Source: an uncultured Clostridia bacterium
GTDB taxonomy: Bacteria; Bacillota; Clostridia; Christensenellales; UBA1242
Assembly: GCA_944362545.1 (NCBI GenBank)
Contig: CALVTJ010000002.1
Location: 36,134 to 100,133 of the forward strand
Length of the DNA stretch: 64,000 bases
Direction: 5' to 3'
A program made the translations under genes and the position numbers. This document shows positions 1-16,821 of the stretch, in pieces (the first letter of the stretch is position 1; each line of letters begins with the position of its first letter). The notes beneath the pieces are model-generated. The model did no database searches, had not been told where the DNA came from, and saw only the letters and a list, made by a program, of their open reading frames with translations.

Positions 1-573
1 AAACTTGGAAGTCCAACACTTTTTGAGCCATATCTTGAAAAAGTGAGAGATTTAACAAAAATTCCGATTGATATATTGAGGCGTGATGTTAATCAACAGC
101 AAGAAAGACCAAAATTTAAAATTCAAGAGCCGACCCTGCCACAGACAGTGGAAAATGGCGATGAAAAAGCAGCGAAATTTATTTTGGCATCGCTTTTGCA
201 CAAAAAGGACTATGTGGACAAGCGAATTGATTATCAGAAACTTTTGGAAGGTTTTGAAAAATATTTGGATATAATAAATCAAAATCTGCCATTATCTGCA
301 ATCTTTGATGATGAAGATTCATCCAGTGATAAAATGCTGATGGAACTTGTCAATTTCAATTTTACAGAATTTGAAAGTTATGCAGAACGGTATTTTAGAG
401 AATGTGTTTGGAAAATTGCCGAACAAAAATTGCGACAAAAACAAAGTCAACTCAATGAAGAATATAAAAATTGTGAAGATTTGACACGAAGAGCGGAAAT
501 TGCCAAGATGCTTGGCAAGATTGCAATTCAGTTGAAAAATAAAAGTTTGGAGGAATTCAATGTCAGAAGATAA
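1..573 (+). CDS. dnaG: DNA primase DnaG, C-terminal part (5' end lies outside the window)
   Basis: Frame 1 is open from base 1 with no stop before 571-573, so tracked ORF 43..573 is the tail of a longer gene. It overlaps the sigA start (560) by 14 nt, matching the conserved Firmicute dnaG-sigA operon. The residues themselves are only weakly diagnostic. Confidence 0.6.
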
Positions 574-1636
574 AAAACAAGATGGAGCAAGAATCAAATT
601 GATGCAAGACCGACTCCTTGCTCTTGCTATAAAAAAAGGTTCCATAAATGAGGATGATGTGAGATTTTCCATGTTGAAAGTGGGAGATAACGCACAAAAT
701 GTGGACAAATTTTTGGGACATTTAAAGAAAAAGGGCATCAAAATCATCGCCAGCAACGATGAGGATTTGTATAAGGACAATTTTTCGGATTTGGTGGCAT
801 CCACAAGTGTAGATGATCCTGTGAAGATGTATCTCAAAGACATCGGCAAAGTCCCTCTCTTGACACCAGAACAGGAGAAGGATTTGGCAAAAAAAGTTAT
901 GCAGGGTGACCAATACGCAAAATCTGTTTTATGTGAATCCAACCTTCGTCTTGTTGTAAGTGTGGCAAAAAAGTATGTTGGTAAAACCTCAATGTCGTTT
1001 CTTGACTTGATTCAGGAAGGAAATATGGGATTGTTGAGAGCGGTGGACAAGTTTGATTACACCAAGGGCTTTAAGTTTTCGACTTATGCAACTTGGTGGA
1101 TAAGACAGGCTATCACTCGTGCCATGGCTGACCAATCAAGAACAATTCGCATTCCTGTGCATATGGTGGAGACAATCAACAAATATGTCAAGGTCTCCAG
1201 AACTTTGATGCAAAAACTTGGCAGAGACCCAACCATTGAAGAGATTGCGAAAGAGATGGATTTGTCCGTAGCAAAGGTTATGGAAATTCAAAAGACTGCA
1301 CAGGACCCAATTTCTTTGGAAACCCCAATGGGCGAAGAAGATGATGGAAAAATGGCAGATGTCATTGTGGATGAAAGCGCAAAATCACCAATTGAAAGTG
1401 CGACACAGACTTTGCTTCGAGAACAACTTTTGGCCGTCATTGACACATTGACACCAAGAGAACAAGAGGTTATTCGACAAAGATATGGACTTTTGGATGG
1501 CAGACAAAAGACCTTGGAAGAGGTCGGCCGTGAATTCCATGTGACAAGGGAACGTATAAGACAGATTGAAGCAAAAGCGCTTCGCAAATTGAAAAATCCC
1601 AGCCGTAGCAAAAGACTTGCGGACTTTGTGGACTGA
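560..1636 (+). CDS. sigA: RNA polymerase primary sigma factor (sigma-70 / SigA)
   Basis: GGAGG lies 6 nt before the ATG. Region 2 motif [16 protein letters not shown], region 1.2 [16 protein letters not shown], and region 4 [24 protein letters not shown] are all present. Confidence 0.97.
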
Positions 1637-1669
1637 TGGTGAATAACAAAATAAAAAATGGAGATAAAG

Positions 1670-2377
1670 ATGAATATTGAAAACTTGTTGAAATATCAAA
1701 AATTGGATCAGGAACTCTTTGCAGTTGAACAAAAGATTGCAAACAGTCCTTATCGCAAAAAGGCAAACGAACTTGCAACCTTGGCAAAAAAGACACAGAC
1801 AAAATCCGTGGAACTTGAAACGGAAGCGGAGAAACTTTTGGCACAGATTGAAGATTTGAAAGAGAAGTATGCTACAAACAAAGCACAGGCAGACAAGATG
1901 ATGTCCGGCAAGATTGAAAACATGACAGTGGAAGAACTTGACAAGTTGTCCACATTGCAAAAAGCAATTTCAAAAAATTTGAGTGTGCTTGAAAAAATGC
2001 TCCAAAAGAGCGCTGAAAACATCAATCACATTTTGGCAGAGTTTAACAAGACAAAGAAACTCTATGACCAAGCCAGAACACAATATGTCACTTGCAAGCA
2101 AAAACTTGATGAACAAACCAAGGCAAGCGAGCCAGAGAAAGCAAAAATCAAAAAACAGTTGGAAGTTTTGGAAAAGGATGTTGACCCACAGATTATGGCG
2201 GATTATAAAAAGAAACGCAATGATAACATTTTTCCTGTCATTGTTCCGCTTGAAAATGGAAACTTTTGTGGCAGATGTCGCATGGAACTTCCAAAAGTGG
2301 CAATTTCGCGACTCAAAGAAAAAGGAATTATCACTTGCGAACATTGCAAGAGATATATCTATTTGAAACAAGAATGA
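1670..2377 (+). CDS. Coiled-coil protein with C-terminal C4 zinc ribbon (COG1579 / DUF164-like)
   Basis: Long K/E/Q-rich coiled coil ends in CGRCRMELP...CEHCKRYIY. I prefer the ATG at 1670 (GGAG 6 nt upstream) to the tracked 1658. Confidence 0.7.
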   Translation: MNIENLLKYQKLDQELFAVEQKIANSPYRKKANELATLAKKTQTKSVELETEAEKLLAQIEDLKEKYATNKAQADKMMSGKIENMTVEELDKLSTLQKAISKNLSVLEKMLQKSAENINHILAEFNKTKKLYDQARTQYVTCKQKLDEQTKASEPEKAKIKKQLEVLEKDVDPQIMADYKKKRNDNIFPVIVPLENGNFCGRCRMELPKVAISRLKEKGIITCEHCKRYIYLKQE

Positions 2378-2396
2378 ATGTCAATTTAACAAGTTG

Positions 2397-2425
2397 AGAC
2401 AGAACAATGATGTTCTGTCTTTTTT
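2397..2425. terminator. Bidirectional intrinsic terminator between convergent genes
   Basis: Perfect 10-bp stem agacagaaca / tgttctgtct with a 4-nt loop, T-run on the plus side and A-rich sequence before it. Confidence 0.7.
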
Positions 2426-2429
2426 GTTT

Positions 2430-3581
2430 TTATAAGATTTTTTCTACTCTTTTATGTTTTAAAAGAGTTTTGATGGCTAGCACAAGGCGTTCAATCTCTT
2501 GGTAGGTGTTGAAGTAGGACATTGACACACGCACCGCACCTTGTGAAAGTGTGCCGAGCGCTTTGTGTTTGAGTGGAGCACAGTGAAAACCGCTTCGCAC
2601 GCAGATTGACCATTTTTCGTTTAGGTAGTTTGCCACTTCCGGTGAGTCAACATTTGGAATGTTGAAGGCAAACACGCCGTTTGTGTTTTCGGTTTTGGTG
2701 TAGATTTCAATTGGCAGTTTTGATAGTTCATAGTGCAGATAAGTTGTCAAATCTTCCAATTTTTCTTGAATTGGTTTGAAGTTTTCTTCAACAAATTTGA
2801 CTCCTTCTCCAAAACCCAAAATGGCAGGAGTGTTTATTGTTCCACTTTCAAAGCGTTCTGGCAGAGTGAGAGGTTGAAAAAGTTCCAGCGAGTTTGTGCC
2901 TGTTCCGCCAAAGCGAATGGGTGCAAGGTCAAAATCGCCATTGATGGCAAGAGCGCCAACTCCTTGCGGAGCATAAAATCCTTTGTGTGGAGCAAGAGCG
3001 AGCATGTTGATGTTCGTATTTTGCATATCATAATGAAAATGTCCACCACCTTGTGCACCATCCACCAAAAACAAAATGTTCTTTTCTTTTAAGTGTCTGC
3101 CTATATCTTCAATGTCACAAACATCACCATTTACATTTGAAACATGATTGCATATGACAAGATAGGTCTTATCGGTCAGCAGTTTTTCAATATCTTGCCA
3201 AACAATGCCCAACCTTCCTGACTGTTGGGCGATGGAATAGTCAAAATCGTGAGATAAACTTTTGAGATGTTCCAATGGTCGCAACACGGAGTTGTGTTCA
3301 TTTTCTGTGCAGATGATATGACCATTAGGTCTGAAACTGCCTAATATGGCAAGATTGAGCGCATCGGTGCAATTTAATGTGAAGATGATTTTGTCTGGAG
3401 TTGTGCCAACATGGCATGCCACAGTTTCTCGCACATTTTGCACGGCAAGTGCTGATTTGAGCGCTTGCTTATGCCCACTTCTTCCAGGGTTTGCTGAAAA
3501 CTCATTGAGCCCGCTCAAAACCGCTTTTTGAACATTCTTTGGTTTGATAATACTTGATGCAGAGTTGTCGAGATATATCAT
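2430..3581 (-). CDS. Cysteine desulfurase / class V aminotransferase (NifS/IscS/Csd-like)
   Basis: N-terminal IYLDNSASS and the PLP-lysine region LAPHKGFYAPQGVGAL. Length 383 aa. Confidence 0.85.
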   Translation of the reverse strand: MIYLDNSASSIIKPKNVQKAVLSGLNEFSANPGRSGHKQALKSALAVQNVRETVACHVGTTPDKIIFTLNCTDALNLAILGSFRPNGHIICTENEHNSVLRPLEHLKSLSHDFDYSIAQQSGRLGIVWQDIEKLLTDKTYLVICNHVSNVNGDVCDIEDIGRHLKEKNILFLVDGAQGGGHFHYDMQNTNINMLALAPHKGFYAPQGVGALAINGDFDLAPIRFGGTGTNSLELFQPLTLPERFESGTINTPAILGFGEGVKFVEENFKPIQEKLEDLTTYLHYELSKLPIEIYTKTENTNGVFAFNIPNVDSPEVANYLNEKWSICVRSGFHCAPLKHKALGTLSQGAVRVSMSYFNTYQEIERLVLAIKTLLKHKRVEKIL

Positions 3582-3658
3582 TTTGACCTTCTTTTAAACA
3601 AAAGATTTGTATTAACAATATAATAAATTAGGGGAGTTTTTGTGCATAAGGAGGTGCT

Positions 3659-3916
3659 GTGAATTATATTATTGCGATTTTCAGGTCAAGGTATGCAACA
3701 CTAAATTTTTCCAATCTTCTTCGTGCTAACAACATCCCTGTTGCCATCATAAACACTCCACAAAGCATAAATCGAACTTGCGGAATTTCTGTCAAGTTTT
3801 TGAGTGATTATTTTGGCAAAGTGCAGACTTTGCTTTCGCGAATTGATTTGAGAAGTTTTGATGGATTTTATTCGCTGACAGTCAGGGGAGGAAAACCCAA
3901 CTTGATAAAACTTTAA
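3659..3916 (+). CDS. DUF3343-like small protein (putative sulfur/selenium-relay partner)
   Basis: AAGGAGG precedes the GTG start. The 85-aa pattern IFRSRYATLNFSNLLRANNIPVAIINTPQSINRTCGISVKF fits DUF3343. It is divergent from the cysteine desulfurase, a common pairing. Confidence 0.6.
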   Translation: MNYIIAIFRSRYATLNFSNLLRANNIPVAIINTPQSINRTCGISVKFLSDYFGKVQTLLSRIDLRSFDGFYSLTVRGGKPNLIKL

Positions 3917-3953
3917 AATTGACAAAATAAATCCAAAAAGTTCTACAAAAGAG

Positions 3954-3987
3954 AAGAAGCACAAAGGCATAAATGTGCTTCTTTTTC
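3954..3987 (+). terminator. Intrinsic terminator after the DUF3343 gene
   Basis: 9-bp stem aagaagcac / gtgcttctt followed by a T-run. Confidence 0.6.
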
Positions 3988-4000
3988 ATAAAATAGCGTT

Positions 4001-4543
4001 ATGAACGCTTGGGCAAAAGGGATTATAACCATTTTTTTATGTTTGTCATTTTTGTTTTTGGCAGTTTTTGGCGTGCAGTGCGTGTATGGCTATCTTTTTC
4101 CTGTCAAGTTTGAAACAGAAATCGAGCAGGCGTGTGCGGAAAGTGGAGTAGAGCGGGCGGTGGTGTTTTCTCTTATCAATGTTGAAAGCCACTTTGATGA
4201 AAATGCTTCATCTTCAAAAGGTGCGGTGGGGCTTATGCAGATTATGCCCAGCACTGCACAGGAAGTGGCAATCTCACTTGGCATAAAGGATTTTGATTTG
4301 CAAGAACCAGAGCAAAACATTCGCATTGGCACTGCATATCTTGCCAAACTTTTGAAGCGTTTTGAAGATTTGAAAGTGGCACTTGCCTCTTACAATGCTG
4401 GACCATCCAATGTCAGCGCATGGCTGAAAGATGAAAGATACAGCGATGATGGCAAAACATTGAAAGATATTCCGTTTGCAGAAACAAAAAATTACATTGA
4501 AAAATTTGAGAAAAATTATCGCTATTACAGCAAAAAAATGTAG
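4001..4543 (+). CDS. Membrane-anchored lytic transglycosylase (SLT domain)
   Basis: N-terminal TM helix, catalytic-Glu motif NVESHFDENASSSKGAVGLMQIMPSTA, and downstream AYNAGPSNV. Confidence 0.9.
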   Translation: MNAWAKGIITIFLCLSFLFLAVFGVQCVYGYLFPVKFETEIEQACAESGVERAVVFSLINVESHFDENASSSKGAVGLMQIMPSTAQEVAISLGIKDFDLQEPEQNIRIGTAYLAKLLKRFEDLKVALASYNAGPSNVSAWLKDERYSDDGKTLKDIPFAETKNYIEKFEKNYRYYSKKM

Positions 4544-4565
4544 AAGTGTTTCTTGTTTTTTATTT

Positions 4566-5444
4566 TTATAATGTTGCAAAATCTGCTTCATCAAACCAAG
4601 CAGGTGCACTGACTGTATCATTTGATTTTGTCAAAATAATGGTGGCATCACATGGCACAATCAAATCTCCGGTTTGACCAAAAGTTTGCATTTGAAAGTT
4701 GATTGAAATCAGTTGGTTGTTTGAGTCAAAGGTCATTATCATCTCGCCAAAGCCATCGGTTTTGAGTTTTTCAAGTGTTTCGCCAGAGCCAAACATTCCA
4801 TCAGCATTTGGGCATTTGTCCATGACAAAGTTTGCATATTCAAACATGTTAAGGTCAATTGTCAAAGAGTAGCTATTTGGTCTGCTGGTTTTTGTGACAT
4901 CGTTTTGATAGATTATGTCAAATGCATCATCCAAAAACATATAATCAAATGAAACCAAAATCATGCTCAAATTTTGACTTTCACTCATATTGTCGGCAAA
5001 AAGTGATTTGCTTTTTTCTCCATCACGGTCGGTGTAAACATATTCGCCATCATAATATTCCAGTGTGCTTGTTGTGAAGGTCTCGCTTCCGCTAACATCG
5101 TTTAGGCTGTTTGAAAGAGTGTATCTTGTCCACACTCCGTTGGTCTTTTCAATAAGTGCCATATATTGAGTGTTGCTTGACATTTCTCCTGCTGACATTT
5201 TGCTTTCAACATAGACATCTGTGTTATGAAATTTTGTGAAAACATCTCTGTTTGTTGAAGGTATCTCATCTTCCAAAGCATTTGTCATTTTTTCAAGCGC
5301 AAGGGCGTTTACAATGATTTCCTTTGCCTGCAAAATAGAAATTGTTTCAGTGCTTTTCTCTCCACATCCTGCAAACAAAAAACATCCACATATTAAAATC
5401 ATGCAGACATTAAAAATGCTTGTCCAAATTCTTTTAACTGTCAT
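4566..5444 (-). CDS. Putative lipoprotein, unknown function
   Basis: Signal peptide with lipobox LFAGC|GEKS. No recognisable domain. Confidence 0.55.
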   Translation of the reverse strand: MTVKRIWTSIFNVCMILICGCFLFAGCGEKSTETISILQAKEIIVNALALEKMTNALEDEIPSTNRDVFTKFHNTDVYVESKMSAGEMSSNTQYMALIEKTNGVWTRYTLSNSLNDVSGSETFTTSTLEYYDGEYVYTDRDGEKSKSLFADNMSESQNLSMILVSFDYMFLDDAFDIIYQNDVTKTSRPNSYSLTIDLNMFEYANFVMDKCPNADGMFGSGETLEKLKTDGFGEMIMTFDSNNQLISINFQMQTFGQTGDLIVPCDATIILTKSNDTVSAPAWFDEADFATL

Positions 5445-5575
5445 AATTTATCTCCTATTACTATTTATAATAGCGGGGGGGGGATAAAAGTCAAGTTTTA
5501 TGCGTTTCATTTTAAAAGACAAGATGAAAACTTTTTGAGTAAACTTGAAAATGAAAAAAAGTGCAAAAAATTTCT

Positions 5576-5658
<83 letters not shown>

Positions 5659-5735
5659 ATGAGTTGGTATAGTTTTTCTTCCAAATTCCACATTTAATAA
5701 AAAAATACGAAATTTGGTTCGTATTCAAATGCTTT

Positions 5736-5811
5736 TGGTGGCTCGCCGGGGGTTCGAACCCCGGACCCCAAGATTAAAAGTCTTGTGCTCTACCAACTGA
5801 GCTAGCGAACC
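5736..5811 (-). tRNA. tRNA-Lys(TTT)
   Basis: Reverse complement GGTTCGCTAGCTCAGTTGGTAGAGCACAAGACTTTTAATCTTGG...GGTTCGAACCCCCGGCGAGCCACCA. Anticodon loop CTTTTAA. Confidence 0.93.
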
Positions 5812-5841
5812 TTAATTAATTTTACCTCTCTTTCAAAAGGT

Positions 5842-5916
5842 TGGCAGGGGTGGCAGGATTTGAACCTACGCATGCAAGAGTCAAAGTCTTGTGCCTTACC
5901 GCTTGGCTACACCCCT
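5842..5916 (-). tRNA. tRNA-Gln(TTG)
   Basis: Reverse complement AGGGGTGTAGCCAAGCGGTAAGGCACAAGACTTTGACTCTTG...GGTTCAAATCCTGCCACCCCTGCCA. Anticodon loop CTTTGAC. Confidence 0.92.
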
Positions 5917-5954
5917 ATGTTTTAGGTGCCGTTTTTGACATTCTGTTTTTTTTG

Positions 5955-6030
5955 TGGCTGGGGTGGTAGGATTCGAACCTACGCAATGTTGGAGTCAGAG
6001 TCCAATGCCTTACCGCTTGGCGACACCCCA
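5955..6030 (-). tRNA. tRNA-Gln(CTG)
   Basis: Reverse complement TGGGGTGTCGCCAAGCGGTAAGGCATTGGACTCTGACTCCAA...GGTTCGAATCCTACCACCCCAGCCA. Anticodon loop CTCTGAC. Confidence 0.92.
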
Positions 6031-6058
6031 ATGTCCGCATTTTTCTGCGGATTTTTTA

Positions 6059-6135
6059 TGGGGTGATCGAAGGGGGTTGAACCCTTGACCTCCAGAGCCA
6101 CAATCTGGCGTTCTCCCAACTGAACTACGACCACC
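6059..6135 (-). tRNA. tRNA-His(GTG) with encoded G(-1)
   Basis: Reverse complement G-GTGGTCGTAGTTCAGTTGGGAGAACGCCAGATTGTGGCTCTGG...GGTTCAACCCCCTTCGATCACCCCA. Anticodon loop TTGTGGC. The extra 5' G is typical of tRNA-His. Confidence 0.92.
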
Positions 6136-6138
6136 ACA

Positions 6139-6215
<77 letters not shown>

Positions 6216-6218
6216 AGA

Positions 6219-6292
6219 TGGAGCAGGTGAAGGGAATCGGACCCTCGCAACCAGCTTGGAAGGCTAGTGTTCTACCACTGAACTACACCTGC
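6219..6292 (-). tRNA. tRNA-Gly(TCC)
   Basis: Reverse complement GCAGGTGTAGTTCAGTGGTAGAACACTAGCCTTCCAAGCTGG...TCCGATTCCCTTCACCTGCTCCA. Anticodon loop CTTCCAA. Confidence 0.92.
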
Positions 6293-6340
6293 AAATGCTT
6301 TTATAGTTTATCATGCACCAAACAAAAAGTCAAGAAATTT

Positions 6341-6381
6341 TATAAAAAAATATAAAAAGAATGACCACAAAAGGCCATTCT
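6341..6381 (-). terminator. Intrinsic terminator downstream of the Spo0A_C-like gene
   Basis: Hairpin agaatgacc / ggccattct (9 bp, 1 mismatch) at 6358-6381, followed on the minus strand by a long U-rich tract (plus-strand A-run 6341-6357). Confidence 0.6.
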
Positions 6382-6403
6382 CGTGTTTTTATTCATTTTT
6401 TCT

Positions 6404-6775
6404 TTATATGACATTTTTATAAAGTCCCAAATTGTAATACTCCGCTACAAGTTTGATTATTTCCGCAGTAGTTGGCTTGTAGCCAGGTTTGAAAATTTCC
6501 ATGCCATAAATTTTATTTACGATATCAAATCCTTTGGTGTTGTATGTAAGTGTTATGGCATTTTGAATGTTCGCTTCCACACGGAAGGGATTTTCAATGC
6601 CAAGTTGTTCGGCCACTATTTTAAACAAGTTTTTGAGATTGTAAACCAACATTGGTTTTTCTATCACAAGTTCCACTGCCTTGACAAGAAAGGAAAAACC
6701 AACCAAATCACATTTGATCCCTATCCTTATAAGTGTCAATTTGACAACTCTTTCAACTTCACTCATTTCTTCCAT
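6404..6775 (-). CDS. Stand-alone Spo0A C-terminal (DNA-binding) domain protein, no receiver domain
   Basis: The 123-aa protein aligns by eye with the Spo0A effector domain: LIRIGIKCDLVGFSFLVKAVELV (cf. HEIGVPAHIKGYQYLREAI), NPFRVEANIQNAITLTY (cf. TASRVERAIRHAIEVAW), YKPTTAEIIKLVAEYY (cf. KPTNSEFIAMVADKL). Confidence 0.75.
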   Translation of the reverse strand: MEEMSEVERVVKLTLIRIGIKCDLVGFSFLVKAVELVIEKPMLVYNLKNLFKIVAEQLGIENPFRVEANIQNAITLTYNTKGFDIVNKIYGMEIFKPGYKPTTAEIIKLVAEYYNLGLYKNVI

Positions 6776-6886
6776 TTTTCCACCTTTTATCCTTTACCGA
6801 CATATTATATCATGAAACTTTAAAATTAGCAAATATTTTTCAATATTTTACAAATTATATTTTAAAAATATTTTATTGCAAGATTC

Positions 6887-6915
6887 TTGCCTAATTTTTT
6901 AGAATCTGTTATAAT
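6887..6915 (+). promoter_or_regulatory. Sigma-A type promoter for tRNA-Ser
   Basis: TTGCCT, 17-nt spacer, TATAAT (6910-6915). The tRNA starts 12 nt later. Confidence 0.6.
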
Positions 6916-6926
6916 GTTGTCATTGT

Positions 6927-7017
6927 GGAAACGTATCAAAGTGGTCGCACTGAGCCGCACTCGAAATGCGGTTGTCGAGGAATCGGCACGTGGGTTCGAA
7001 TCCCACCGTTTCCGCCA
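6927..7017 (+). tRNA. tRNA-Ser(CGA), class II, CCA encoded
   Basis: GGAAACG acceptor pairs with CGTTTCC. Anticodon stem-loop CCGCA-CTCGAAA-TGCGG, long variable arm TGTCGAGGAATCGGCAC, T-arm GTGGGTTCGAATCCCAC. Confidence 0.88.
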
Positions 7018-7117
7018 ATTTTTTTTATTAAAGGCAGAAAACTAAAAAACGGTGGGATAAAAGCCTCTGGCTTTTGCAAAACAAAAGTTTTGCACGAACC
7101 CACTATCGTGGCTGAGA
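6997..7117 (+). repeat. Copy 1 of the 120-bp duplicated module (tRNA-Ser T-loop/acceptor 3' end plus 100-bp structured trailer)
   Basis: 7011-7117 matches 7201-7307 with one mismatch (g7108 / a7298). The overlap extends back into CGAATCCCACCGTT of the tRNA. Confidence 0.95.
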
Positions 7118-7187
7118 CCGCGAGCAGGGGAGAAGAGTGCGGTCAGCGGTTTGACTTGGAGTAAACAAGTTTACTGTCAAACCTATG

Positions 7188-7307
7188 CGAATCCACCATT
7201 TCCGCCAATTTTTTTTATTAAAGGCAGAAAACTAAAAAACGGTGGGATAAAAGCCTCTGGCTTTTGCAAAACAAAAGTTTTGCACGAACCCACTATCATG
7301 GCTGAGA
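7188..7307 (+). repeat. Copy 2 of the 120-bp module, beginning with a truncated tRNA 3' end (cgaatccaccatttccgcca)
   Basis: Offset is exactly 190 bp from copy 1. It lacks the tRNA 5' half, so it is a tRNA 3' fragment plus the same trailer. Confidence 0.95.
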
Positions 7308-7362
7308 ACAAGGTTCAAGATTCCATTTTTTTGTTGGAGCAAGGGGTGAAAGATATTTAATT

Positions 7363-7929
7363 TTAAATTTTCTCTTCAATATCAAGCATGCCACTATGAG
7401 ACAATTTTTGATATATAGCGTTGCAAATAAGGCAGTCTTTTTCTGCTCGGTGTGCACCGACAATGTCAATGCCAAGATGACTTGCCACTGTGGTCTGTTT
7501 GTGATTGTAAAGGTGTGGTAAAAATTTTCTTGCAAAACGCAAGATATCGACATAATCATTTGACAGTGGGGTGTTTAAATAATATATCATGTTGTCATAA
7601 AGAAAATTTATATCAAAATTGACATTATAGCCCATAAGAATGTCATCTCGGACAAATTCTTTTAAGCTAATCAGGGCAGGCACAATGTCAATGCCGGTTT
7701 GTGCGATGTTGGTGGTAATGCCTGTAAGTTTTGTTATAAATGGATGAACCTTGCCTTTTGGCTTTATGAGAGTGGAAAATGTGGCGACCTTTTCGCCGTT
7801 TCTAAATTTAACGGCAGATATTTCCAAAATTTCACAGATATGAGAAAGAAAACCGTTGGTTTCAATGTCAATGACCACATAATCTTTTGGATATGTCCAC
7901 AAACTTTGACCTTTAAATTCTCGCATCAT
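7363..7929 (-). CDS. DEDDh 3'-5' exonuclease (DnaQ / PolIII-epsilon-like), stand-alone
   Basis: GGAGG lies 4 nt before ATGATG at 7929. Exo I VVIDIETNGF, Exo II GYNVNFDINFL, Exo III HRAEKDCLIC. I prefer this start to the tracked 7980. Confidence 0.85.
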   Translation of the reverse strand: MMREFKGQSLWTYPKDYVVIDIETNGFLSHICEILEISAVKFRNGEKVATFSTLIKPKGKVHPFITKLTGITTNIAQTGIDIVPALISLKEFVRDDILMGYNVNFDINFLYDNMIYYLNTPLSNDYVDILRFARKFLPHLYNHKQTTVASHLGIDIVGAHRAEKDCLICNAIYQKLSHSGMLDIEEKI

Positions 7930-8202
7930 TTTTCCTCCAATGTTTAAAAAATTGATGTATGCATTGCGTTTTTTATACATTTAAGTTGGTTTGATTGTCA
8001 AAATATTAGTTTAAAGATGTTTTATTATAGCATAAATTGGTCAATTGTTAAACAATGGGAATTGACATTTCGAAAAAATTTCAAAGATAATCCATTCGCC
8101 ATTTTTCGTGATTTTTAGCAAAATTTGACATAATTTTCTCTGTAAATTTGCTGTTTTTTGGTTTATAATGTTGTCGCTATTTTTTAAAAGGAGAAAAAGA
8201 TT

Positions 8203-8541
8203 ATGCCATTTATTGTCACAGAACCACAGAGAATTGAAGGAACAGAACTTGGTTTTGCCGTTTATCCCTATCATTTCAATTTTCAGGACTTTTTGGAAAA
8301 AGATAGAAAATTCAATAATAAACTTTTGATTTTCAAGATGAAACATTCGCCATTTGCTGAAGTGGAATTTGTTTTGTTTGAGTCTAGATATTCCGATCAA
8401 ATTGAGTCAAAATATTATGTCAATGATGTTTTGAAAGAATTTGTCAAGACTCATCAACAATATATCATAGATCGTGAGAAGTTGGAACGCTTTTTTGATA
8501 AAAACATCTACAATCGCAAACACATTGGTCCTTCACTTTAA
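8203..8541 (+). CDS. Hypothetical protein (112 aa)
   Basis: AAAGGAGAAAAAGATT precedes the ATG. No recognisable motif. Confidence 0.5.
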   Translation: MPFIVTEPQRIEGTELGFAVYPYHFNFQDFLEKDRKFNNKLLIFKMKHSPFAEVEFVLFESRYSDQIESKYYVNDVLKEFVKTHQQYIIDREKLERFFDKNIYNRKHIGPSL

Positions 8542-8622
8542 CCAAAAATAATTTTCTGCGTGATTTTTCTCCCTGCATTTGCTAAAGAGGTCTCTTTTGT
8601 GGTATTCTTTATTTATTAAATC

Positions 8623-10743
8623 ATGGCAGAGAAAAGCAAGAAAATTTTTAACGCGCGACCACTTTTTTATGGCTTTTTGGCCTTGTTGTTGGCAATTTCA
8701 ACTTCAAGGTATGTTTTTGCCGGAGATGTCAAATATATCATCTTTGATTGTGTGATTTTTCTCGCATTTGCTGTTTTTTGCATTTGGGCAAAAAATTTCA
8801 AAACCTTGATTGCCATCATTTGTGTTTTAGCCTTTGGTTTTGGTTGGTTTTTTGTTGGGCAAGCAAACTTTTTAGGCAAGGTCTATGAAGGAACTTGTCA
8901 GGTTGTTGGAAGGATTTCTGACAATGTCAATTTTTCTTCTTATGGAAACAGTGCAGATGTTGTTTTGAAAGATGTCTATATAAATGGGAAGAAAGAGAAA
9001 AACATAGCACTTAAAATTTACATAGACAGCACGGATGATTTTGAAATTGGAGACATTATTGCATTTGAAGCGGAAGTTGACAGAGTGTCACTTTTCACAC
9101 TCGGTGATTTTAACAGTTTTTATTTTCGCGATGACACGCCTTACACAAGTTCTGTGTCGGCGGATGACTTTTTTGTGCAAGGAAATAGTTTAAACTTTGA
9201 TGAACGTTTCAGATTGCAGGTTAAAGATTTGCTTTATCAAAATATGGATGAAGACAGCGGGGCAGTGGCTTTTGCTCTGCTTTTTGGTGACAGAATCGAA
9301 GTGGATGATGACATCTATGATGCTTACAAAACCTCAGGCATTGTGCATGTGTTGACTGTTTCTGGACTTCATGTCAGTTTTTTGTTTGGACTTTTAGGCT
9401 TTTTCATGAAAAAGTTGAAAGTAAGGGGCATTTACAACTTTTTGATTTGTGCTGTATGTTTGATTTTTTATACATGGCTGTGCGGTTTTGTGTCAACAAT
9501 GGTCAGGTCTGGTATTATGGGACTTGTGCTTTTGGGTGCAAAACTTTCGGGTAAATGTTATGACAATTTAAATTCTCTTGGTTTGGCAGGGATTTTGATT
9601 TTACTTTTTTCACCACTTTCTGCACTCGATTTGAGTTTTTTGATGAGTTTCTTTTGCATGATAGGTATTTTTGTCATTTCTCCATATCTTTCAAAATTGT
9701 TTAGAAAGGCATTGCCAAAAGCGGTGGCAGATTCAATCGCAGTTTCAATTTCTGCTGAAATCGGAATTTTACCATTTGTTGCCAGCATTTATGCGGGTGT
9801 TAATTTTCTCTCATTTTTTGTTAATTTGATTGTTATTCCTATCTTTTCAATTATATATCCGATTTTGTTTGTTGGGATGTTTTTAGTTATGCTCATGCCA
9901 TTTCTGGGGTTTGTGTTCACGGTTTGTGGATGGGGATTGAATTTTGTTGCACAAATTGCAAGTTTCTTTGCAGATGCAACCTTTGTTCTAAATGCTGAAC
10001 CTCTTGACATCTTTTTGGTGACGCTCATGTTTGTACTCTTCTTTTTGTGTAGCAGATTTTTTATGACAAGCAAAAAGACCAAAACTGTGTGCTGTTGTTG
10101 CATTTTGGTGCTTGGTGGAGTGTTGGGATGTGTAAACTTGATTCCGCAAGATGTTTCTGCTTGTGTGTCTTATGGATACAATTATTCTGCACCAATTGTG
10201 ATGCTAACAAATGACAGTGGAAAGAGTGTGATTGTGGATATCGGCTATTATTCTTACACAAAAAATATGATGCGTGCATCAAAAATTGATGCATGTGACA
10301 CAATTTTTGTGCTACAAAGGTCAAATGTGTCTGTTGACACGGCGCGCGAAATTGGTGTGGAAAATATCATAAGATGTGATGCCGGACAAGGATTGGATGA
10401 AGATGTGGTGGTCAACTTCGACCAAATAGGATTGGTCGATGGTTTTTCTTTTGTTTATCGGTCTTATAATGACAGGCTTATTGGCCTAGAAATTGGTTTT
10501 GATGATATAAATGTTTTTATTTTGAGAGATCTAAATCAAACGGATGAGGCACTAGATTTTGTTGCAAATGAAAATTATGATATAGTTATTCTTGGAAAAC
10601 ATGATGAGTATGCAGACCACTTTTCCGGGTCACAGATATTGACTTTTTATGAAAATCCGCTTGCGGAAACAAGTTTTGCAAACAATGGTAATATTTATTG
10701 CAATTTAGGTGATAAAAAATTTGATTGGAGGTGTTTAGATTGA
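8623..10743 (+). CDS. comEC: DNA internalisation competence protein ComEC/Rec2 with a degenerate C-terminal metallo-beta-lactamase domain
   Basis: Polytopic membrane protein with the competence-domain signature YKTSGIVHVLTVSGLHVSFL. The C-terminal domain starts VIVDIGY but has no HxHxDH motif. Confidence 0.9.
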   Translation: MAEKSKKIFNARPLFYGFLALLLAISTSRYVFAGDVKYIIFDCVIFLAFAVFCIWAKNFKTLIAIICVLAFGFGWFFVGQANFLGKVYEGTCQVVGRISDNVNFSSYGNSADVVLKDVYINGKKEKNIALKIYIDSTDDFEIGDIIAFEAEVDRVSLFTLGDFNSFYFRDDTPYTSSVSADDFFVQGNSLNFDERFRLQVKDLLYQNMDEDSGAVAFALLFGDRIEVDDDIYDAYKTSGIVHVLTVSGLHVSFLFGLLGFFMKKLKVRGIYNFLICAVCLIFYTWLCGFVSTMVRSGIMGLVLLGAKLSGKCYDNLNSLGLAGILILLFSPLSALDLSFLMSFFCMIGIFVISPYLSKLFRKALPKAVADSIAVSISAEIGILPFVASIYAGVNFLSFFVNLIVIPIFSIIYPILFVGMFLVMLMPFLGFVFTVCGWGLNFVAQIASFFADATFVLNAEPLDIFLVTLMFVLFFLCSRFFMTSKKTKTVCCCCILVLGGVLGCVNLIPQDVSACVSYGYNYSAPIVMLTNDSGKSVIVDIGYYSYTKNMMRASKIDACDTIFVLQRSNVSVDTAREIGVENIIRCDAGQGLDEDVVVNFDQIGLVDGFSFVYRSYNDRLIGLEIGFDDINVFILRDLNQTDEALDFVANENYDIVILGKHDEYADHFSGSQILTFYENPLAETSFANNGNIYCNLGDKKFDWRCLD

Positions 10744-11672
10744 AAACATTAAAGGCAAGATTGAAAAAAAAGATTGAAGCAAGTTATCTTATTCAAGGAG
10801 AAGACATACTTTTGTATGACAAAGCGCTTGAAATGATAAAAAAAGCTGTAAATTTGCAACTTGAAGATTTCAACTTCATCGTTTTTGATGATGAATCTTT
10901 TGATGGTGATGCGGTTATTGACAGTTGCCAAACATTGCCAATGGGAAGTGACTACAAGATAGTCCTGCTCAAAAACATTGTGAAAGTGCCGGAAAATTTC
11001 AAGAAAAAACTACGTGATTATCTCAAAAATCCGGTGGAAAGCACAGTGCTTGTCATCTTTGACTTTTTCAATAAGTTTGATTTTATCATCAGCGAAAAGA
11101 TCAGTGCAAAGCGTTTGGATGATGCGAGTTTGAAGGAAATCATTATTGATGAACTTCAAAAGCATGGAAAAATCATAAAAAATGATGCCTGTCAACAACT
11201 TATCGAATCGTGTTGTAATTATTATTCTCTCATCAAAAATGAACTTGAAAAATTGGACTCTTGTGATGATGTTGAAATCACCACAAAAACGGTGGACAGT
11301 CTTGTGAGCAAAGAAACAGAGTTTACGGTTTTTGAACTTACGGATGCGCTTTCAAGGCGTGATGGTGACAAGGCGGTGTCACTTTTAAATCTTATGGACA
11401 AAGACACAAAGACCTTTTCACTTATTCTAAATCATTTTAGAAGATTGTTTTTTGTCGCCATTTCAGGACTATCTGATCAAGAACTTTCCGAACTCCTTTC
11501 AGTCAAAGAGTATGCCATTGTTAAAGCAAGAACACTTGCCAAAAACTTTTCAAAAATCCAACTCAAAAACATCTATGAAATGCTTAATGATGTGGATTTT
11601 TACATCAAAAATGGGCAAATGCAGATAGAAAATGCGCTATATTATTTGATTTTTGGTATTCTTTATTGTTAA
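10740..11672 (+). CDS. holA: DNA polymerase III delta subunit
   Basis: Lies immediately after comEC (conserved comEC-holA synteny). N-terminus SYLIQGEDILLYDKALEMIKKA. GGAGG at 10727-10731 favours the TTG at 10740, which overlaps the comEC stop. Confidence 0.75.
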   Translation: MKTLKARLKKKIEASYLIQGEDILLYDKALEMIKKAVNLQLEDFNFIVFDDESFDGDAVIDSCQTLPMGSDYKIVLLKNIVKVPENFKKKLRDYLKNPVESTVLVIFDFFNKFDFIISEKISAKRLDDASLKEIIIDELQKHGKIIKNDACQQLIESCCNYYSLIKNELEKLDSCDDVEITTKTVDSLVSKETEFTVFELTDALSRRDGDKAVSLLNLMDKDTKTFSLILNHFRRLFFVAISGLSDQELSELLSVKEYAIVKARTLAKNFSKIQLKNIYEMLNDVDFYIKNGQMQIENALYYLIFGILYC

Positions 11673-11772
11673 TATAATTATATGTATGGGCAAAAAGAAA
11701 AAGCATGATTGATAAAAGATAAAGTTATAGAAAATATTAAAAAGACAGATTGTGTCAAAAGGATGAAGAATT

Positions 11773-12369
11773 ATGGATTTGGATGAATTGAAACAAGAAT
11801 TTTTGGAAATTTATTATGACAACATCGAACGCGATGGAGCGGAAGCACTGTTAAATTATCTTGAAAAGACAGATTTCTTCACAGCACCAGCATCAGGCAG
11901 AAGACATTCCAATTTTGAGGGTGGGTTATGTTTGCACAGCATAAATGTCTATAAACGCTATCTCAAACTTTTGCAAAATGAGTATGGCGACAAGTGGCAG
12001 GAAGTGATTTCGCCGGAAAGTGTGGCAATTATTGGACTTTTGCATGACATTTGCAAGGTTAACACCTATACCGTTGAAATGAGAAATGTCAAAGTGAATG
12101 GAGAATGGATTCAAAAACCATATTACAAGTATGCCGACACTCTGCCCTATGGACATGGAGAAAAGTCAGTTTACATGATTTCTGGATTCATGAAACTGAC
12201 AAGAGAAGAAGCAATGGCAATAAATTGGCACATGGGGGCATTTGATGCACGCGTGCGAGAAAATTCAAACATTTTGGGAGAAGTTTTCTACCGTTATCCA
12301 ACAGCGTTTTTGTTTCATTTAGCAGACTATATGGCTACATATCTTGATGAAAAGCCCGTTGAAGATTGA
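11773..12369 (+). CDS. HD-domain metal-dependent phosphohydrolase
   Basis: H...HD pattern (GLCLHSINV ... IGLLHDICK) plus downstream YGHGEKS and NWHMGAFD. Confidence 0.7.
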   Translation: MDLDELKQEFLEIYYDNIERDGAEALLNYLEKTDFFTAPASGRRHSNFEGGLCLHSINVYKRYLKLLQNEYGDKWQEVISPESVAIIGLLHDICKVNTYTVEMRNVKVNGEWIQKPYYKYADTLPYGHGEKSVYMISGFMKLTREEAMAINWHMGAFDARVRENSNILGEVFYRYPTAFLFHLADYMATYLDEKPVED

Positions 12370-12385
12370 AAAATTGTCAAAAAAA

Positions 12386-12406
12386 ACCGCAAAATGCGCG
12401 GTTTTT
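12386..12406 (+). terminator. Intrinsic terminator after the HD gene
   Basis: accgc-aaaatgc-gcggt followed by TTTTT. The stem is short. Confidence 0.45.
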
Positions 12407-12521
12407 GTGCATATATAATGTATTATCGACATAGATTGCATAAAAAACATGAAAGTTTTGGTGTTTGTTATTTTTCTATCATAAAAAATTGCAGAAATGT
12501 TTATTTTTTGAGAAATGGGTA

Positions 12522-12550
12522 TTGACAGTTTGTGCATTTTGTTTTATAAT
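12522..12550 (+). promoter_or_regulatory. Consensus sigma-A promoter of the 803-aa gene
   Basis: TTGACA (12522-12527), 17-nt spacer, TATAAT (12545-12550). Confidence 0.7.
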
Positions 12551-12578
12551 GTAAGCAAGAAAAACGGAGGTGTTTATC

Positions 12579-14990
12579 ATGGATGTTAAAACACAAGGAA
12601 GAAAAATAGGGAAAAAAGCTTTTCAAGATATGTGGAAAAAGGCTCCTGCATTTTCTGTTGACAAAAAGACAGGACTTGGGCTTGGAAAGGTTGAAGTTTT
12701 AAACAGCAGAGGTTCGAGAAGCAGATTTTTGTTCGTAAAAGATGATTCTACTGGTGCTGTTTGTTGTTATCGACAATCCCTTTATAATGAAAAGTGGAAT
12801 GAAAAAGCAATTCCAAATGCATATTTTGTAAGGAAAGTGGCTGTTGACAGCAAAGAAAATGTCTTCAAAACTTACAATTCAGCTTCCAATGTTTCAGAGA
12901 CAGTGACAAATCTTCTTTCTGACACACAAGGAACGGCTGTTAAGGATGCACTTACTGTAATGAGTGACAACAGCAAGAACAATGGCTTTGAAGAGATTTA
13001 CGAAGCCATTAAGGAACAATTTTCTAAAGAGCGTGTTGGGAATACAGAAATAAGAGATGATTATATTCCAAACTTTTCGTTGGTTCAGCCAATAACTTCT
13101 AGCGAGAAAGGGAAAAAGAGTACCGCAATAATTCTTGTTGACAATACAGGGGTGGACATCCAAGATTCAGCCAGAGTTCATTTGGTTGCTGTAAAACAAA
13201 AAGGAAAACATGATCATGACTATCAATGGTTGGTGGTTGGGCCTCATCCAAATAAGAAAAAAGAAAGAGAAGGGATTTCTTCACTTTACTTATTGGATGA
13301 CTTGAAAGATAAAAAAGGAAATGATATCAATATCAATAGTTCTGAAGAACTTTTGAAAAATGGTGCTTTTGTTGTTGGAAAAGTTCGTTATGACAAAGAG
13401 AACGAAGTTTCTATCAAATATTACAAGGATGCAAAAGCAAAGAGTGCAAATAAGCAGGTCTCTGCAGTTGATGTGACAGGAGATTTGAAAGCTTGGGAGC
13501 AGAACACTCTCAGCGTATATAGCAGATTTGATAGACCGGCAAGCGAAAAGGTTAAAGAAACAAGACCAACACTTAAATCTCAAAAAGCCTTGAAAATATC
13601 TGCTGTTGCTGCAGTTGCACTTGCTGCTGTTTTAACAGCGGGACACTTTACAGCAAATGCGATTATTGATAATCAAAGAGAAACAGAGACTTTGTATAAT
13701 CAGAATTATGATGAAGCATATGCAAGTGTGCCTGATGAAAGTGCATTGGCAAGAGAGTTTGGTGCTAGCCAAATGCAAGACAGAATTGGCGGTGTCAGTG
13801 GATCATTGTTAAATTATGAAAATTCTGGTCTTGGTGTGACTGCAACTGCTGGCAATATAACAAATGTTGTAAACACGCCTGTTGATTTTTATACACAACA
13901 AGAACTTGTAAAATTTGATGGCGAATGGATTGGGCAAGATAAATATGACTATGCAACAGACACCGTTGAAGGTGCTTTTGAAGAGCTTGGAAAAACTATT
14001 GCTAATGAAGTTAGTCAAAATGGAATTCATGTGGGAGTGAGAGAGGATAATTCATCTTCTATTTCAGTGAATTACATTTATGGTGCAGTTGATGCCCTTG
14101 CTCCAAGTGATGCTCTTGAAAGTTCGGATGCTATGGAAGAGTATTTGACAACAGTTTATGGAGACAGCAATCTTGCTGCCGCTGCAGTTGGCGCTTATGA
14201 AAAGGGGTATGAGTCCGCTGTCAAAGAGATGGTGGCAAATCCTGATCACAATGATGACCTCATCATAAATGAAGGAGATATTCCTGTTGTTGATTACACA
14301 AGTGAAGATCTTCACACTGCGGCTGCTGCTACAGTTGCATCTTTGACAAAGAGTGGAAAAAATTATGATGCTGATGAAATCAACATTGCTTATGCTTCAT
14401 ATGAAGACCAAGTTGTTTTTGCAAACACCACAGATGGTGACTACCTCTATCAAATTGATTTGACAAATGGAGGAAGAGACAATTCTGTTATCGAGTCAAC
14501 ACAAGATATGATTGACAAACTTGAGAATGCAGACAACTGCAAAGAATCAATCCATCTTGACACATTGCTTTCACAGTTGGACTATGCAGATATAGCGATA
14601 GACAAAACAGTAGCTGAGTATGAACGCCAAAATGGTGTGTCGGGAACAGCCATTTATGTGGCTGACTATAACTCTCTTCAACAGAATCCAGACAAGAAAA
14701 CAGAATTTAGACTGGCACCAAAAATTACTTATGTAAGTGATAATGGCGCAAGAATGGAAACTAGAGATTCAACAGTTGTGACAGTAAAACAGGCAGATAG
14801 ACCTCAATCAAATTGTGCTGAAATGGTTGCAGTCTCTGTGTTCGGAGATGCTGTTGCAGGAAGATATACAATATATGGAAGAATTAAAACAGAACCAAAT
14901 GCTGTTGTATATGAAAATAACGATTTGACAGTTGCAGCGCCAGAGACTACGCAAACTTATCAAAACACAAAGGATGACAGAAGTTTGTAA
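12579..14990 (+). CDS. Large bitopic membrane protein, unknown function (803 aa)
   Basis: GGAGG lies 8 nt before the ATG at 12579. A single central TM helix (ALKISAVAAVALAAVLTAGHF) separates two domains of about 340 and 440 aa. No recognisable motif. Confidence 0.6.
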   Translation: MDVKTQGRKIGKKAFQDMWKKAPAFSVDKKTGLGLGKVEVLNSRGSRSRFLFVKDDSTGAVCCYRQSLYNEKWNEKAIPNAYFVRKVAVDSKENVFKTYNSASNVSETVTNLLSDTQGTAVKDALTVMSDNSKNNGFEEIYEAIKEQFSKERVGNTEIRDDYIPNFSLVQPITSSEKGKKSTAIILVDNTGVDIQDSARVHLVAVKQKGKHDHDYQWLVVGPHPNKKKEREGISSLYLLDDLKDKKGNDININSSEELLKNGAFVVGKVRYDKENEVSIKYYKDAKAKSANKQVSAVDVTGDLKAWEQNTLSVYSRFDRPASEKVKETRPTLKSQKALKISAVAAVALAAVLTAGHFTANAIIDNQRETETLYNQNYDEAYASVPDESALAREFGASQMQDRIGGVSGSLLNYENSGLGVTATAGNITNVVNTPVDFYTQQELVKFDGEWIGQDKYDYATDTVEGAFEELGKTIANEVSQNGIHVGVREDNSSSISVNYIYGAVDALAPSDALESSDAMEEYLTTVYGDSNLAAAAVGAYEKGYESAVKEMVANPDHNDDLIINEGDIPVVDYTSEDLHTAAAATVASLTKSGKNYDADEINIAYASYEDQVVFANTTDGDYLYQIDLTNGGRDNSVIESTQDMIDKLENADNCKESIHLDTLLSQLDYADIAIDKTVAEYERQNGVSGTAIYVADYNSLQQNPDKKTEFRLAPKITYVSDNGARMETRDSTVVTVKQADRPQSNCAEMVAVSVFGDAVAGRYTIYGRIKTEPNAVVYENNDLTVAAPETTQTYQNTKDDRSL

Positions 14991-15017
14991 GGAGTAATCT
15001 AAAAAATAAAGAAAAGG

Positions 15018-15043
15018 CAGACAAAATGTCTGTCTTTTTTTTG
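15018..15043 (+). terminator. Intrinsic terminator after the 803-aa gene
   Basis: cagaca-aaa-tgtctg hairpin followed by tcTTTTTTTT. Confidence 0.6.
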
Positions 15044-15105
15044 TTTAAAACCGATATATTTATAAAGATATAGAATCTTTTTATTTTAAAATGAAATTTG
15101 TAGGG

Positions 15106-15579
15106 TTATTTTATATTTTTCAGCCAGTTTTCCAATACTTTTTTATTTGTCACCATTGTTTTGCCACTAAATTCGAGGTTAAGTCCTTCCTTGACAAGTG
15201 CATCTTTACAAATTTTGGCAAAATCTTTGAAAGTGTGTCCAATCCATCCACCATTTGTAGCAAACGGATAGATAGTTTTGCCTGACAAATTTACTGAACT
15301 TAAAAATGACTTCATGGCAGGAGCAAATGTGTACCACCAAACAGGTGTGCCAAGAATGATTGTGTCATATTTTGAAAAGTCGATGTTCAGTGGTTTGATT
15401 TTTGGCATAAATCCAGTATTGATTTCTTTTTGTCCTTGGTCCACAATGCTTTCATAACTGCCTTTGTATGGCTCGACTGTTTCAATTTCAAAAATATCTG
15501 CGTTGGTGTACTTGGAAATAAGTCGTGATATTTGTCTTGTGTTTCCTCCCAGCGAATAAAAAATTACTACTGCTTTCAT
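15106..15579 (-). CDS. Flavodoxin-family protein
   Basis: GGAGG precedes the ATG at 15579. MKAVVIFYSLGGNTRQISR (FMN phosphate loop) and ILGTPVWWYTFAPAM. Confidence 0.8.
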   Translation of the reverse strand: MKAVVIFYSLGGNTRQISRLISKYTNADIFEIETVEPYKGSYESIVDQGQKEINTGFMPKIKPLNIDFSKYDTIILGTPVWWYTFAPAMKSFLSSVNLSGKTIYPFATNGGWIGHTFKDFAKICKDALVKEGLNLEFSGKTMVTNKKVLENWLKNIK

Positions 15580-15664
15580 AAATTTATCCTCCAATTCAAT
15601 TATAGCCACATAAATGGACAAAATCAAATATCTCATGAGAATTTTGCCAAAAGATTTTTGCCTG

Positions 15665-16375: not shown

Positions 16376-16574
16376 AAAAAAATTATATCAAACCCTGTGC
16401 TCAAATTGCAAAGTATATGTTTATATTTTCCGATAATTTTTAATATTTGTCGTTTTTTTGCATAAAAATAGCACCAATATTAGTTGTGATTTGTCGCGGA
16501 TAGAGAAAAAACAAGCATCAAAGGAGTGTTTTGGTGCTTGCAACAAAACTGAGGCTAAGTGCAGTTTTTTCTCG

Positions 16575-16660
16575 TGGTGCAGAAGATGGGAGTTGAACCC
16601 ACAAGATGTTGCCATCACAGGTACCTGAAACCTGCGCGTCTGCCATTCCGCCACTTCTGC
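16575..16660 (-). tRNA. tRNA-Leu(CAG), CCA encoded
   Basis: Reverse complement GCAGAAGTGGCGGAATGGCAGACGCGCAGGTTTCAGGTACCTG...GGTTCAACTCCCATCTTCTGCACCA. Anticodon loop TTCAGGT, long variable arm. Confidence 0.9.
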
Positions 16661-16815: not shown

Positions 16816-16821
16816 GTTTAC

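Follow-up and report, generated by a model that had tools for sequence, protein, structure and literature searches.

Why does the 3' end of a serine tRNA gene, together with about 100 nt of the DNA behind it, occur twice in one short intergenic region of an uncultured Clostridia bacterium (GTDB lineage Bacteria; Bacillota; Clostridia; Christensenellales; UBA1242)? The region lies in a 64,000-nt stretch of contig CALVTJ010000002.1 (GenBank assembly GCA_944362545.1, positions 36,134 to 100,133 of the forward strand), which we analysed as a whole and refer to as the window, position 1 being its first nucleotide. It is bounded by tRNA-Ser(CGA) and by a convergent gene for an RNase T-family 3'-5' exonuclease. 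A first-pass annotation, made from the sequence alone, had described a structured module of about 120 bp duplicated 190 bp apart and beginning inside the tRNA gene's 3' end, and had left three explanations side by side, namely a remnant of attachment (att) sites, an ornate terminator of the exonuclease gene, and a tRNA-linked noncoding RNA (ncRNA). The analysis described below leads us to favour another explanation, to which we assign about an even chance of being right: the repeat represents a short direct duplication without genes, made of native tRNA-trailer DNA, bounded in the tRNA T-loop and situated in a recombination hot spot, and the module that it carries (M) acts as a terminator or insulator.

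The anatomy of the repeat was established first by its coordinates. The tRNA-Ser(CGA) gene, which encodes its CCA end, occupies positions 6927-7017 of the plus strand (ARAGORN; Rfam RF00005, 53.9 bits). A repeat search paired 7003-7117 with 7193-7307 (115 nt, 98% identity, 190 nt spacing), and reading of the sequence with a 1-nt deletion allowed extended the repeat leftward to 6997 and 7188, so that it begins at base three of the T-loop. Unit 1 (6997-7117, plus strand) is composed of the last 21 nt of the tRNA, a T8 spacer and the first module, M1, and unit 2 (7188-7307, plus strand) of a decayed tRNA end, a spacer and the second module, M2. The tRNA end that is intact in unit 1 (cgaatcCcaccGtttccgcca) reads cgaatc-caccAtttccgcca in unit 2, where the copy (7188-7207, plus strand) has lost one C and bears one G to A change. 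The sole difference between the two trailers is a substitution, G7108 versus A7298, and the identity stops at 7117/7307, so that the units differ in total by one deletion and one substitution in the tRNA end and by one substitution in the trailer. Between the units lies a 70-nt spacer, segment U (7118-7187, plus strand), which is unique in the window, and M2 is followed by segment D (7308-7362, plus strand), the 55 nt that lead to the exonuclease stop codon at 7363. Tandem Repeats Finder did not call the duplicated unit. ARAGORN, the repeat search and the sequence itself all agree with the first-pass description of the repeat, of its intact and degenerate tRNA ends, and of the unique DNA between its copies. 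Five other assemblies, all of them different ENA metagenome assemblies, have the same structure: the 587-nt spacer is identical in L001, L016, L021 and L023 and is present as a 586-nt variant in L020, and none of the five differs from the window in the decayed tRNA end. The duplication is therefore real and not an accident of assembly.

Comparison with a sister species, whose exonuclease is 80% identical, indicated which parts of the repeat belong to the locus. In that species (L002, and independently L047), the tRNA, the spacer, M, U, a distal spacer (D') and the exonuclease stop codon each occur once. The sister U is 87% identical to the U of the window over 53 nt, and none of 2,000 shuffles reached the alignment score. 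Given that U follows M in a species with a single copy, unit 1 and U are all native DNA of this locus. The first-pass annotation had regarded the whole of U as structured; the hairpin in its second half (7148-7183) is conserved in the orthologous segment of L002 and L047, whereas the first hairpin (gaccgc/gcggtc) had to be rejected as a structural element, as its stem is broken in L002. Beyond the sister species the synteny of the exonuclease gene is lost, and no comparable spacer was found via P0003, P0008, P0014 or P0016.

Contigs encoding an identical Spo0A_C-like protein were treated as belonging to the window's own species and were pooled on that basis. In the interval that runs from the tRNA end (CCA plus ATTTTT) to the exonuclease stop codon they carry three alleles, within flanks that are 98-99% identical. 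Allele A (L019, L022 and L048, from samples ERZ16268065, ERZ16268241 and ERZ28614580) has M and D, that is, one unit and no U. Allele B (the window, L001, L016, L020, L021 and L023) has M, U, the decayed tRNA end, a second M, and D. Allele C (L017, L018, L024 and L025) has a 154-aa open reading frame (ORF), a diverged and only partly retained second half of U, and a distal segment, D'', that is similar to D'. Segment D is limited to alleles A and B and shows no relationship to D' of the sister species or to its counterpart in allele C. From the contig sequences, then, the duplication seems to vary between strains. The left flank falls into two haplotypes, each of which is associated with both A and B: haplotype 1 is found in the window group (B) and in L022 (A), and haplotype 2 in L020 (B) and L019 (A). 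In addition, markers of unit 2 are present in single-copy contigs, the A variant in L048 and the T7 variant in L022.

Allele B is novel in that the end of U is joined to another tRNA end with its M, followed by D in the place of D'. We infer a single break-and-join event that set this tRNA end and M after U, the junction falling within the T-loop, and in which the original distal spacer D' would have been replaced by M2 and D. Allele B is not a clean tandem duplication, since there is no second U; it would have originated either by duplication combined with deletion or replacement, or by a single illegitimate join of a fragment beginning in the T-loop. Once two units were in place, homologous recombination between the identical stretches of 97-115 nt could remove the 190-nt unit or restore it, and such recombination would yield apparent single-copy and two-copy alleles. 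The presence of A and B on two haplotypes, together with the unit 2 markers in single-copy contigs, fits repeated loss by recombination between the units, to judge from the sequences. The locus resembles known recombining segmental or tandem duplications in having two near-identical units of 115-120 nt that lie 190 nt apart, in the existence of one-unit and two-unit contigs, and in the unit 2 markers. It differs from them in that there is no second U and in that the left boundary lies at a canonical recombinase position.

The module that has been duplicated is itself built from tRNA sequence. In M1 (7047-7104, read on both strands from inverted repeats and folding), a closing stem, GGTGGG/CCCACT, surrounds the hairpins AAAAGCC-tct-GGCTTTT and GCAAAAC-aaaa-GTTTTGC, and this three-way junction is the minimum-free-energy fold on the plus strand (-22.0 kcal/mol, z -3.6) as well as on the minus strand (-21.4 kcal/mol, z -3.0), as had been drawn on paper for each copy in the first-pass annotation. 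The claim that the closing strands are an exact inverted complement of the T-arm/acceptor segment was likewise confirmed: 7047-7058 (AAACGGTGGGAT) is the exact reverse complement of tRNA positions 7000-7011 according to the repeat search, and 7095-7103 (CGAACCCAC) is that of 6990-6998 by reading of the sequence. For the remaining 10 tRNAs of the window, no reverse-complement match exceeds 8 nt in the 250 nt downstream. Between the two species M is 94% identical, with five variable aligned columns, all unpaired, and the spacer ahead of it is heavily diverged. All 20 of the 20 predicted pairs of M are invariant, and the covariation score is 0 with only three distinct sequences; because about 40 of the 68 columns are paired, it is only mildly unexpected (about 0.01-0.03) that the four or five changes are all unpaired. 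The inverted, split T-arm in the closing stem was probably left by an inverted duplication that affected the tRNA end at an earlier time.

As to the role of M, the predicted fold and its position suggest that it most plausibly stops transcription between the two convergent genes, as a terminator or insulator. A consensus scan called no simple terminator between the exonuclease stop codon and the tRNA in the window allele. The junction is followed on the minus strand by a U6 tract, which the first-pass annotation had pointed out and which is present in the sequence; in alleles A and B this combination is the first terminator-like structure past the exonuclease gene, and the sole one on the minus strand, although the consensus scan did not call it either. 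It lies about 30 nt before the point at which minus-strand transcription would run antisense into the tRNA. M thus shares with intrinsic terminators between convergent genes a stable structure and a U6 tract behind it, in an allele where no other terminator was called, but unlike them it is a three-way junction instead of a single G+C-rich hairpin, and its U tract is degraded in the sister species.

Several observations weigh against a local duplication with a terminator as its cargo. A boundary inside the 7-nt T-loop is integrase-like, and a random joint would fall there by coincidence only about once in 20 to 40 cases. Behind unit 2 comes D and not a second U, so that a plain tandem duplication requires a further deletion or replacement. 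The copied tRNA end has accumulated two changes in 21 nt versus zero or one in the adjacent 100 nt, which is uneven for a recent neutral duplicate. Furthermore, the allele A contigs may represent allele B collapsed in the de Bruijn graph, the exactly shared 97-99 nt being longer than common assembly k-mers, and this would weaken the case for a polymorphism; the combination found in L022, in which the intact tRNA end is directly followed by T7, is not derivable by collapsing any observed B allele. In L019 the ORF calls split the exonuclease (986-1603) into pieces of 72 and 75 aa, as expected for either a pseudogene or a low-quality assembly, and this bears on the trust that can be placed in that single-copy contig. 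The terminator part of the reading meets its own difficulties. The sister species keeps M, yet its U tract is only U4, and it has a conventional hairpin with a T-run in D', beside the exonuclease stop codon; consequently, termination is not a full explanation of the conservation of M. That the allele C strains have no M argues in the same direction. For the allele of the window, the idea of an ornate exonuclease terminator is plausible.

How far M extends beyond this locus was addressed by several searches. With Rfam 15 only tRNA reached threshold when the whole window was searched at gathering thresholds, and at E up to 10 the interval 6800-7500 produced, on both strands, only tRNA-derived matches otherwise, far below gathering scores. 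The 35-nt core of M occurs twice in the window versus 0 expected, and no further copy of M, U or D was found in the 64-kb window or in the fetched loci. The patterns made from the closing stem of M, from its inner hairpins and from U were all absent from viral contigs; the closing-stem pattern had a single match, by chance, in 185,579 GTDB species representatives, in a Paenibacillus coding region, and phage and plasmid records contained no blastn match to M plus U. The 3' 25-mer of the tRNA matched only complete tRNA-Ser genes on viral contigs. M follows no other tRNA, either among those of the window or in seven metagenome relatives. It is thus restricted to a single locus, shared by the window's species and one sister species, and a dispersed repeat or miniature inverted-repeat transposable element was rejected on the ground that the window has only two adjacent copies and that the searches elsewhere gave none at an unrelated locus. 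The seven relatives came from a metagenome scan anchored on the exact tRNA body, and all of them have unrelated DNA downstream, in which there is no second or displaced tRNA end and no inverted copy of the T-arm. In these loci (L040-L046) the tRNA body is identical and the DNA directly after it is wholly different; in L042/L044, L043 and L046 an ORF with a ribosome-binding site apparently starts within about 20-30 nt of the CCA, as judged by sequence reading and, for L046, by the ORF listing. The 3' flank of tRNA-Ser(CGA) looks like a general insertion hot spot.

A serious alternative, although we consider it rather unlikely, is that the two units are a decayed att pair left by an element that once recombined in the T-loop of tRNA-Ser(CGA), similar to a minimal cis-mobilizable element (CIME). 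Unit 1 would then be attL, with a tRNA end restored by the element, and unit 2 would be attR, with the displaced host end decaying; the element would have been lost nearly completely, and the long identity would be accounted for by a Campbell-type re-integration that included host flank, or by gene conversion. This would explain why the repeat starts at the third T-loop base and why the proximal tRNA end is the intact one and the distal end has decayed, and the single-copy contigs (L019, L022 and L048) could be taken for empty sites, with the reservation that a 97-99-nt exact repeat may have collapsed in them. T-loop crossover sites have been documented for tRNA and tmRNA targets (PMC1762012, PMC3146451), and gene-less, att-flanked remnants are a defined category, the CIME (PMC5704250). 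The character of the locus as a hot spot, with relatives that have different DNA and in several cases an apparent ORF start after this tRNA, is also in favour of an att pair, as is the fact that another species has a phage-like integrase element in tRNA-Ser(GCT) beside the orthologous exonuclease gene. That distant species (exonuclease 67% identical) has the exonuclease gene followed by a convergent tRNA-Ser(GCT), as seen from the comparison of L004:3292-6015 with L003:3555-3930; in one of its strains an element with an integrase and an S24 repressor resides in the anticodon stem-loop of the tRNA, and the displaced 3' part of tRNA-Ser(GCT) has been left beside the exonuclease gene.

Against an att pair is, above all, the origin of U, which separates the repeats: it is native, comes after M in the sister species with its single copy, and is partly kept in allele C. 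The identity continues for 100 nt beyond the tRNA, far past a normal core. No integrase or recombinase domain is encoded within 7 kb (ORFs of at least 140 aa, positions 560 to 18120), and no recombinase was found in any of the collected strain loci. M and U are unmatched in viral contigs and in phage and plasmid records, and no displaced tRNA end lies downstream in the relatives. No mobile element was present between the two copies in any related genome compared. Hence, the likeness to attL/attR pairs and CIMEs lies in a direct repeat of the tRNA 3' end from the T-loop on, intact proximally and decayed distally, with no recombination genes between the copies; the unlikeness lies in the 70 native nt that separate the repeats, in the extended identity, and in the lack of a cognate integrase or a full-length element among the loci searched. 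To our knowledge, a unit of 190 nt is also far smaller than any described CIME. The att remnant proposed in the first-pass annotation draws partial support from the T-loop start, the decayed distal end and the single-copy contigs; the native U and the neighbourhood free of integrases speak against it.

A further alternative derives from allele C, where the M region is replaced by the 154-aa ORF, which starts about 80 nt after tRNA-Ser(CGA) and in L017 occupies 1217-1681 on the minus strand of the locus, in the same sense as the tRNA (ORF call). Its product has no Pfam match and matches PHROG 5200, 'HNH endonuclease' (E = 1e-19). It has 12 homologues among 5.8 billion proteins, and the residues H43, C45, C48, H54, H63, C84, C87, H88 and H92 are invariant across the 12, in keeping with a His/Cys motif of the HNH type. 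One homologue (L049:2348-2962) starts 63 nt after tRNA-Ser(TGA), among housekeeping genes in an unrelated neighbourhood. Another (L050:2420-3100) is preceded by the shared CCGCCA motif and the same post-tRNA hairpin and is followed by GTTTCCGCCA; no tRNA was called there, but these flanks resemble fragments of tRNA 3' ends. Directly upstream of the L050 homologue, beside a DNA methylase, lies a reverse-transcriptase gene (L050:864-2366; RVT_1, 500 aa), and this setting may be that of a retron, a group II intron or a defence context. The evidence for homing of the allele C gene consists of its presence or absence between identical flanks and of its recurrence by tRNA-Ser genes, which suggests that it may represent a chromosomal endonuclease family homing to tRNA-Ser genes. 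Homing endonucleases that act in tRNA gene regions are known in phage T4, SegB being an example (PMC2330249). Allele C, as distinct from the duplication, is like such freestanding enzymes in that conserved flanks right by a tRNA either do or do not enclose a small endonuclease gene; unlike SegB, the allele C enzyme is of the HNH and not the GIY-YIG type, is chromosomal and not phage-borne, and is only a putative cleaving and homing enzyme.

If such an enzyme had cut near the T-arm or 3' end of the tRNA gene, faulty repair of the double-strand break could have given a duplication bounded in the T-loop, and the two changes in the copied tRNA end would destroy the second recognition site. We regard this repair scar as a long shot, though one with some attractions: the HNH gene is an alternative allele at this exact position, its close homologues in L049 and L050 seem tied to tRNA-Ser 3' ends, and T4 SegB provides a precedent. 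On the other hand, only three gene contexts are available, the phage relatives of the protein (30-37% identity) are not beside tRNAs, the cleavage site is putative, and nothing ties the enzyme directly to the duplication joint.

Still less probable is that M is a functional tRNA-trailer RNA, either an 'anti-T-arm' that controls the maturation of read-through precursors or a stand-alone small RNA dosed by the duplication. The 12-nt and 9-nt complements to the T-arm/acceptor segment are exact and are conserved in both species, and on paper the long-range pairing of the tRNA with M reaches -70.5 kcal/mol, compared with -36.2 for the cloverleaf plus -22.0 for the junction. The high conservation of M relative to the diverged spacer ahead of it, with changes confined to unpaired columns, is also in its favour. 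The allele C form of the U hairpin retains 13 of 14 pairs on the plus strand by means of G-U pairs, versus 9 of 14 on the minus strand, and these predicted pairs are a weak hint that the U hairpin folds in a transcript of the tRNA sense. However, thermodynamic folding ignores the tertiary structure and modification of the tRNA, and most transcripts may end ahead of M, at the T8 tract that directly follows the tRNA; moreover, M is missing from the allele C strains and has no equivalent in relatives, which means that it is dispensable. The T8 tract, the tertiary structure of the tRNA and the dispensability of M together make a regulatory RNA role unlikely. The first-pass suggestion of a tRNA-linked ncRNA was likewise not supported, in that M is found only here and at the orthologous locus of one sister species, has no Rfam match, shows no compensatory change, its invariant pairs in three distinct sequences providing no covariation, and has no promoter-like site on either strand within 7018-7362.

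A broader version of this idea, for which we see an equally slender chance, holds that M is active and not a passive scar. It could be an anti-T-arm RNA that binds the T-arm and 3' acceptor strand of tRNA-Ser(CGA) in read-through transcripts and thereby gates its maturation, or a DNA decoy or immunity copy of the HNH target, and the copy number of zero, one or two would then serve as tuning. Finally, although repeats of about 100 nt are difficult for short-read assemblers, an assembly error is a negligible prospect, inasmuch as the joints M1/U, U/decayed tRNA end and M2/D were assembled identically in the window and in five assemblies from other samples, and mixing of the other observed alleles cannot yield the joint between U and the decayed tRNA end.

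Two attempts were made to trace the origin of segment D, and neither result was used in the argument. The start of D (window positions 7308-7340) reads GGTTCAAGATTCC and then ATTTTTTT, which is loosely like a third, heavily decayed T-arm with a post-tRNA T-run, and outside tRNAs the pattern GGTTC[AG]A-N(1-3)-T[CT]C is met only three times on the two strands of the window. The candidate that D begins with a third decayed T-arm proved weak (alignment p about 0.06), and the candidate that D is a rearranged start of U was marginal (p 0.01-0.08).

The genes around the repeat are those of an ordinary chromosomal neighbourhood. A strong promoter-like site for tRNA-Ser(CGA) lies at 6887-6915 on the plus strand (TTGCCT, a 17-nt spacer and a TG-extended TATAAT; 10 of 12 matches) and ends 11 nt upstream of the start of the tRNA. 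The exonuclease gene (7363-7980, minus strand; PF00929, E = 1.2e-26) has its best named homologues in Ruminococcus, from which the source was judged to be probably an uncultured member of that group. Divergent from the tRNA is the gene that was used as the anchor for the strain collection (6404-6775, minus strand); according to the domain search, its 123-aa product has only the C-terminal DNA-binding domain of Spo0A (Spo0A_C). It lies, together with 5576-6292 (minus strand) of the window, in the region of the tRNA-Ser gene and a seven-tRNA cluster; the placement of the Spo0A_C-only protein between the two is kept in relatives, e.g. L046. Besides the Spo0A_C protein and the exonuclease, the housekeeping neighbours include ComEC, HolA, RpoD, an aminotransferase and an SLT transglycosylase. 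Three other ORFs, 12570-14990 (plus strand, 806 aa), 11773-12369 (plus strand, 198 aa) and 15665-16375 (minus strand, 236 aa), had no Pfam match at E up to 1e-5.

Taken together, the boundary of the repeat looks recombinase-like on sequence grounds but has no element attached to it, and nothing shows that a new RNA gene or family, or a mobile element, is present here. As a small, well-documented structural variant, the repeat is in itself a local curiosity. It shows the turnover of the DNA behind a tRNA gene among close strains, which have one module, two modules or an endonuclease gene at this position, and it cautions against taking every duplicated tRNA 3' end that starts in the T-loop as the mark of a foreign element. 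Of greatest interest as leads are the HNH family associated with tRNA-Ser genes and the inverted, split copy of the T-arm. The locus would carry greater weight if a chromosomal HNH family does home to tRNA-Ser 3' ends, or if there is an interaction between the inverted T-arm copy and either the tRNA or an HNH enzyme of this kind.

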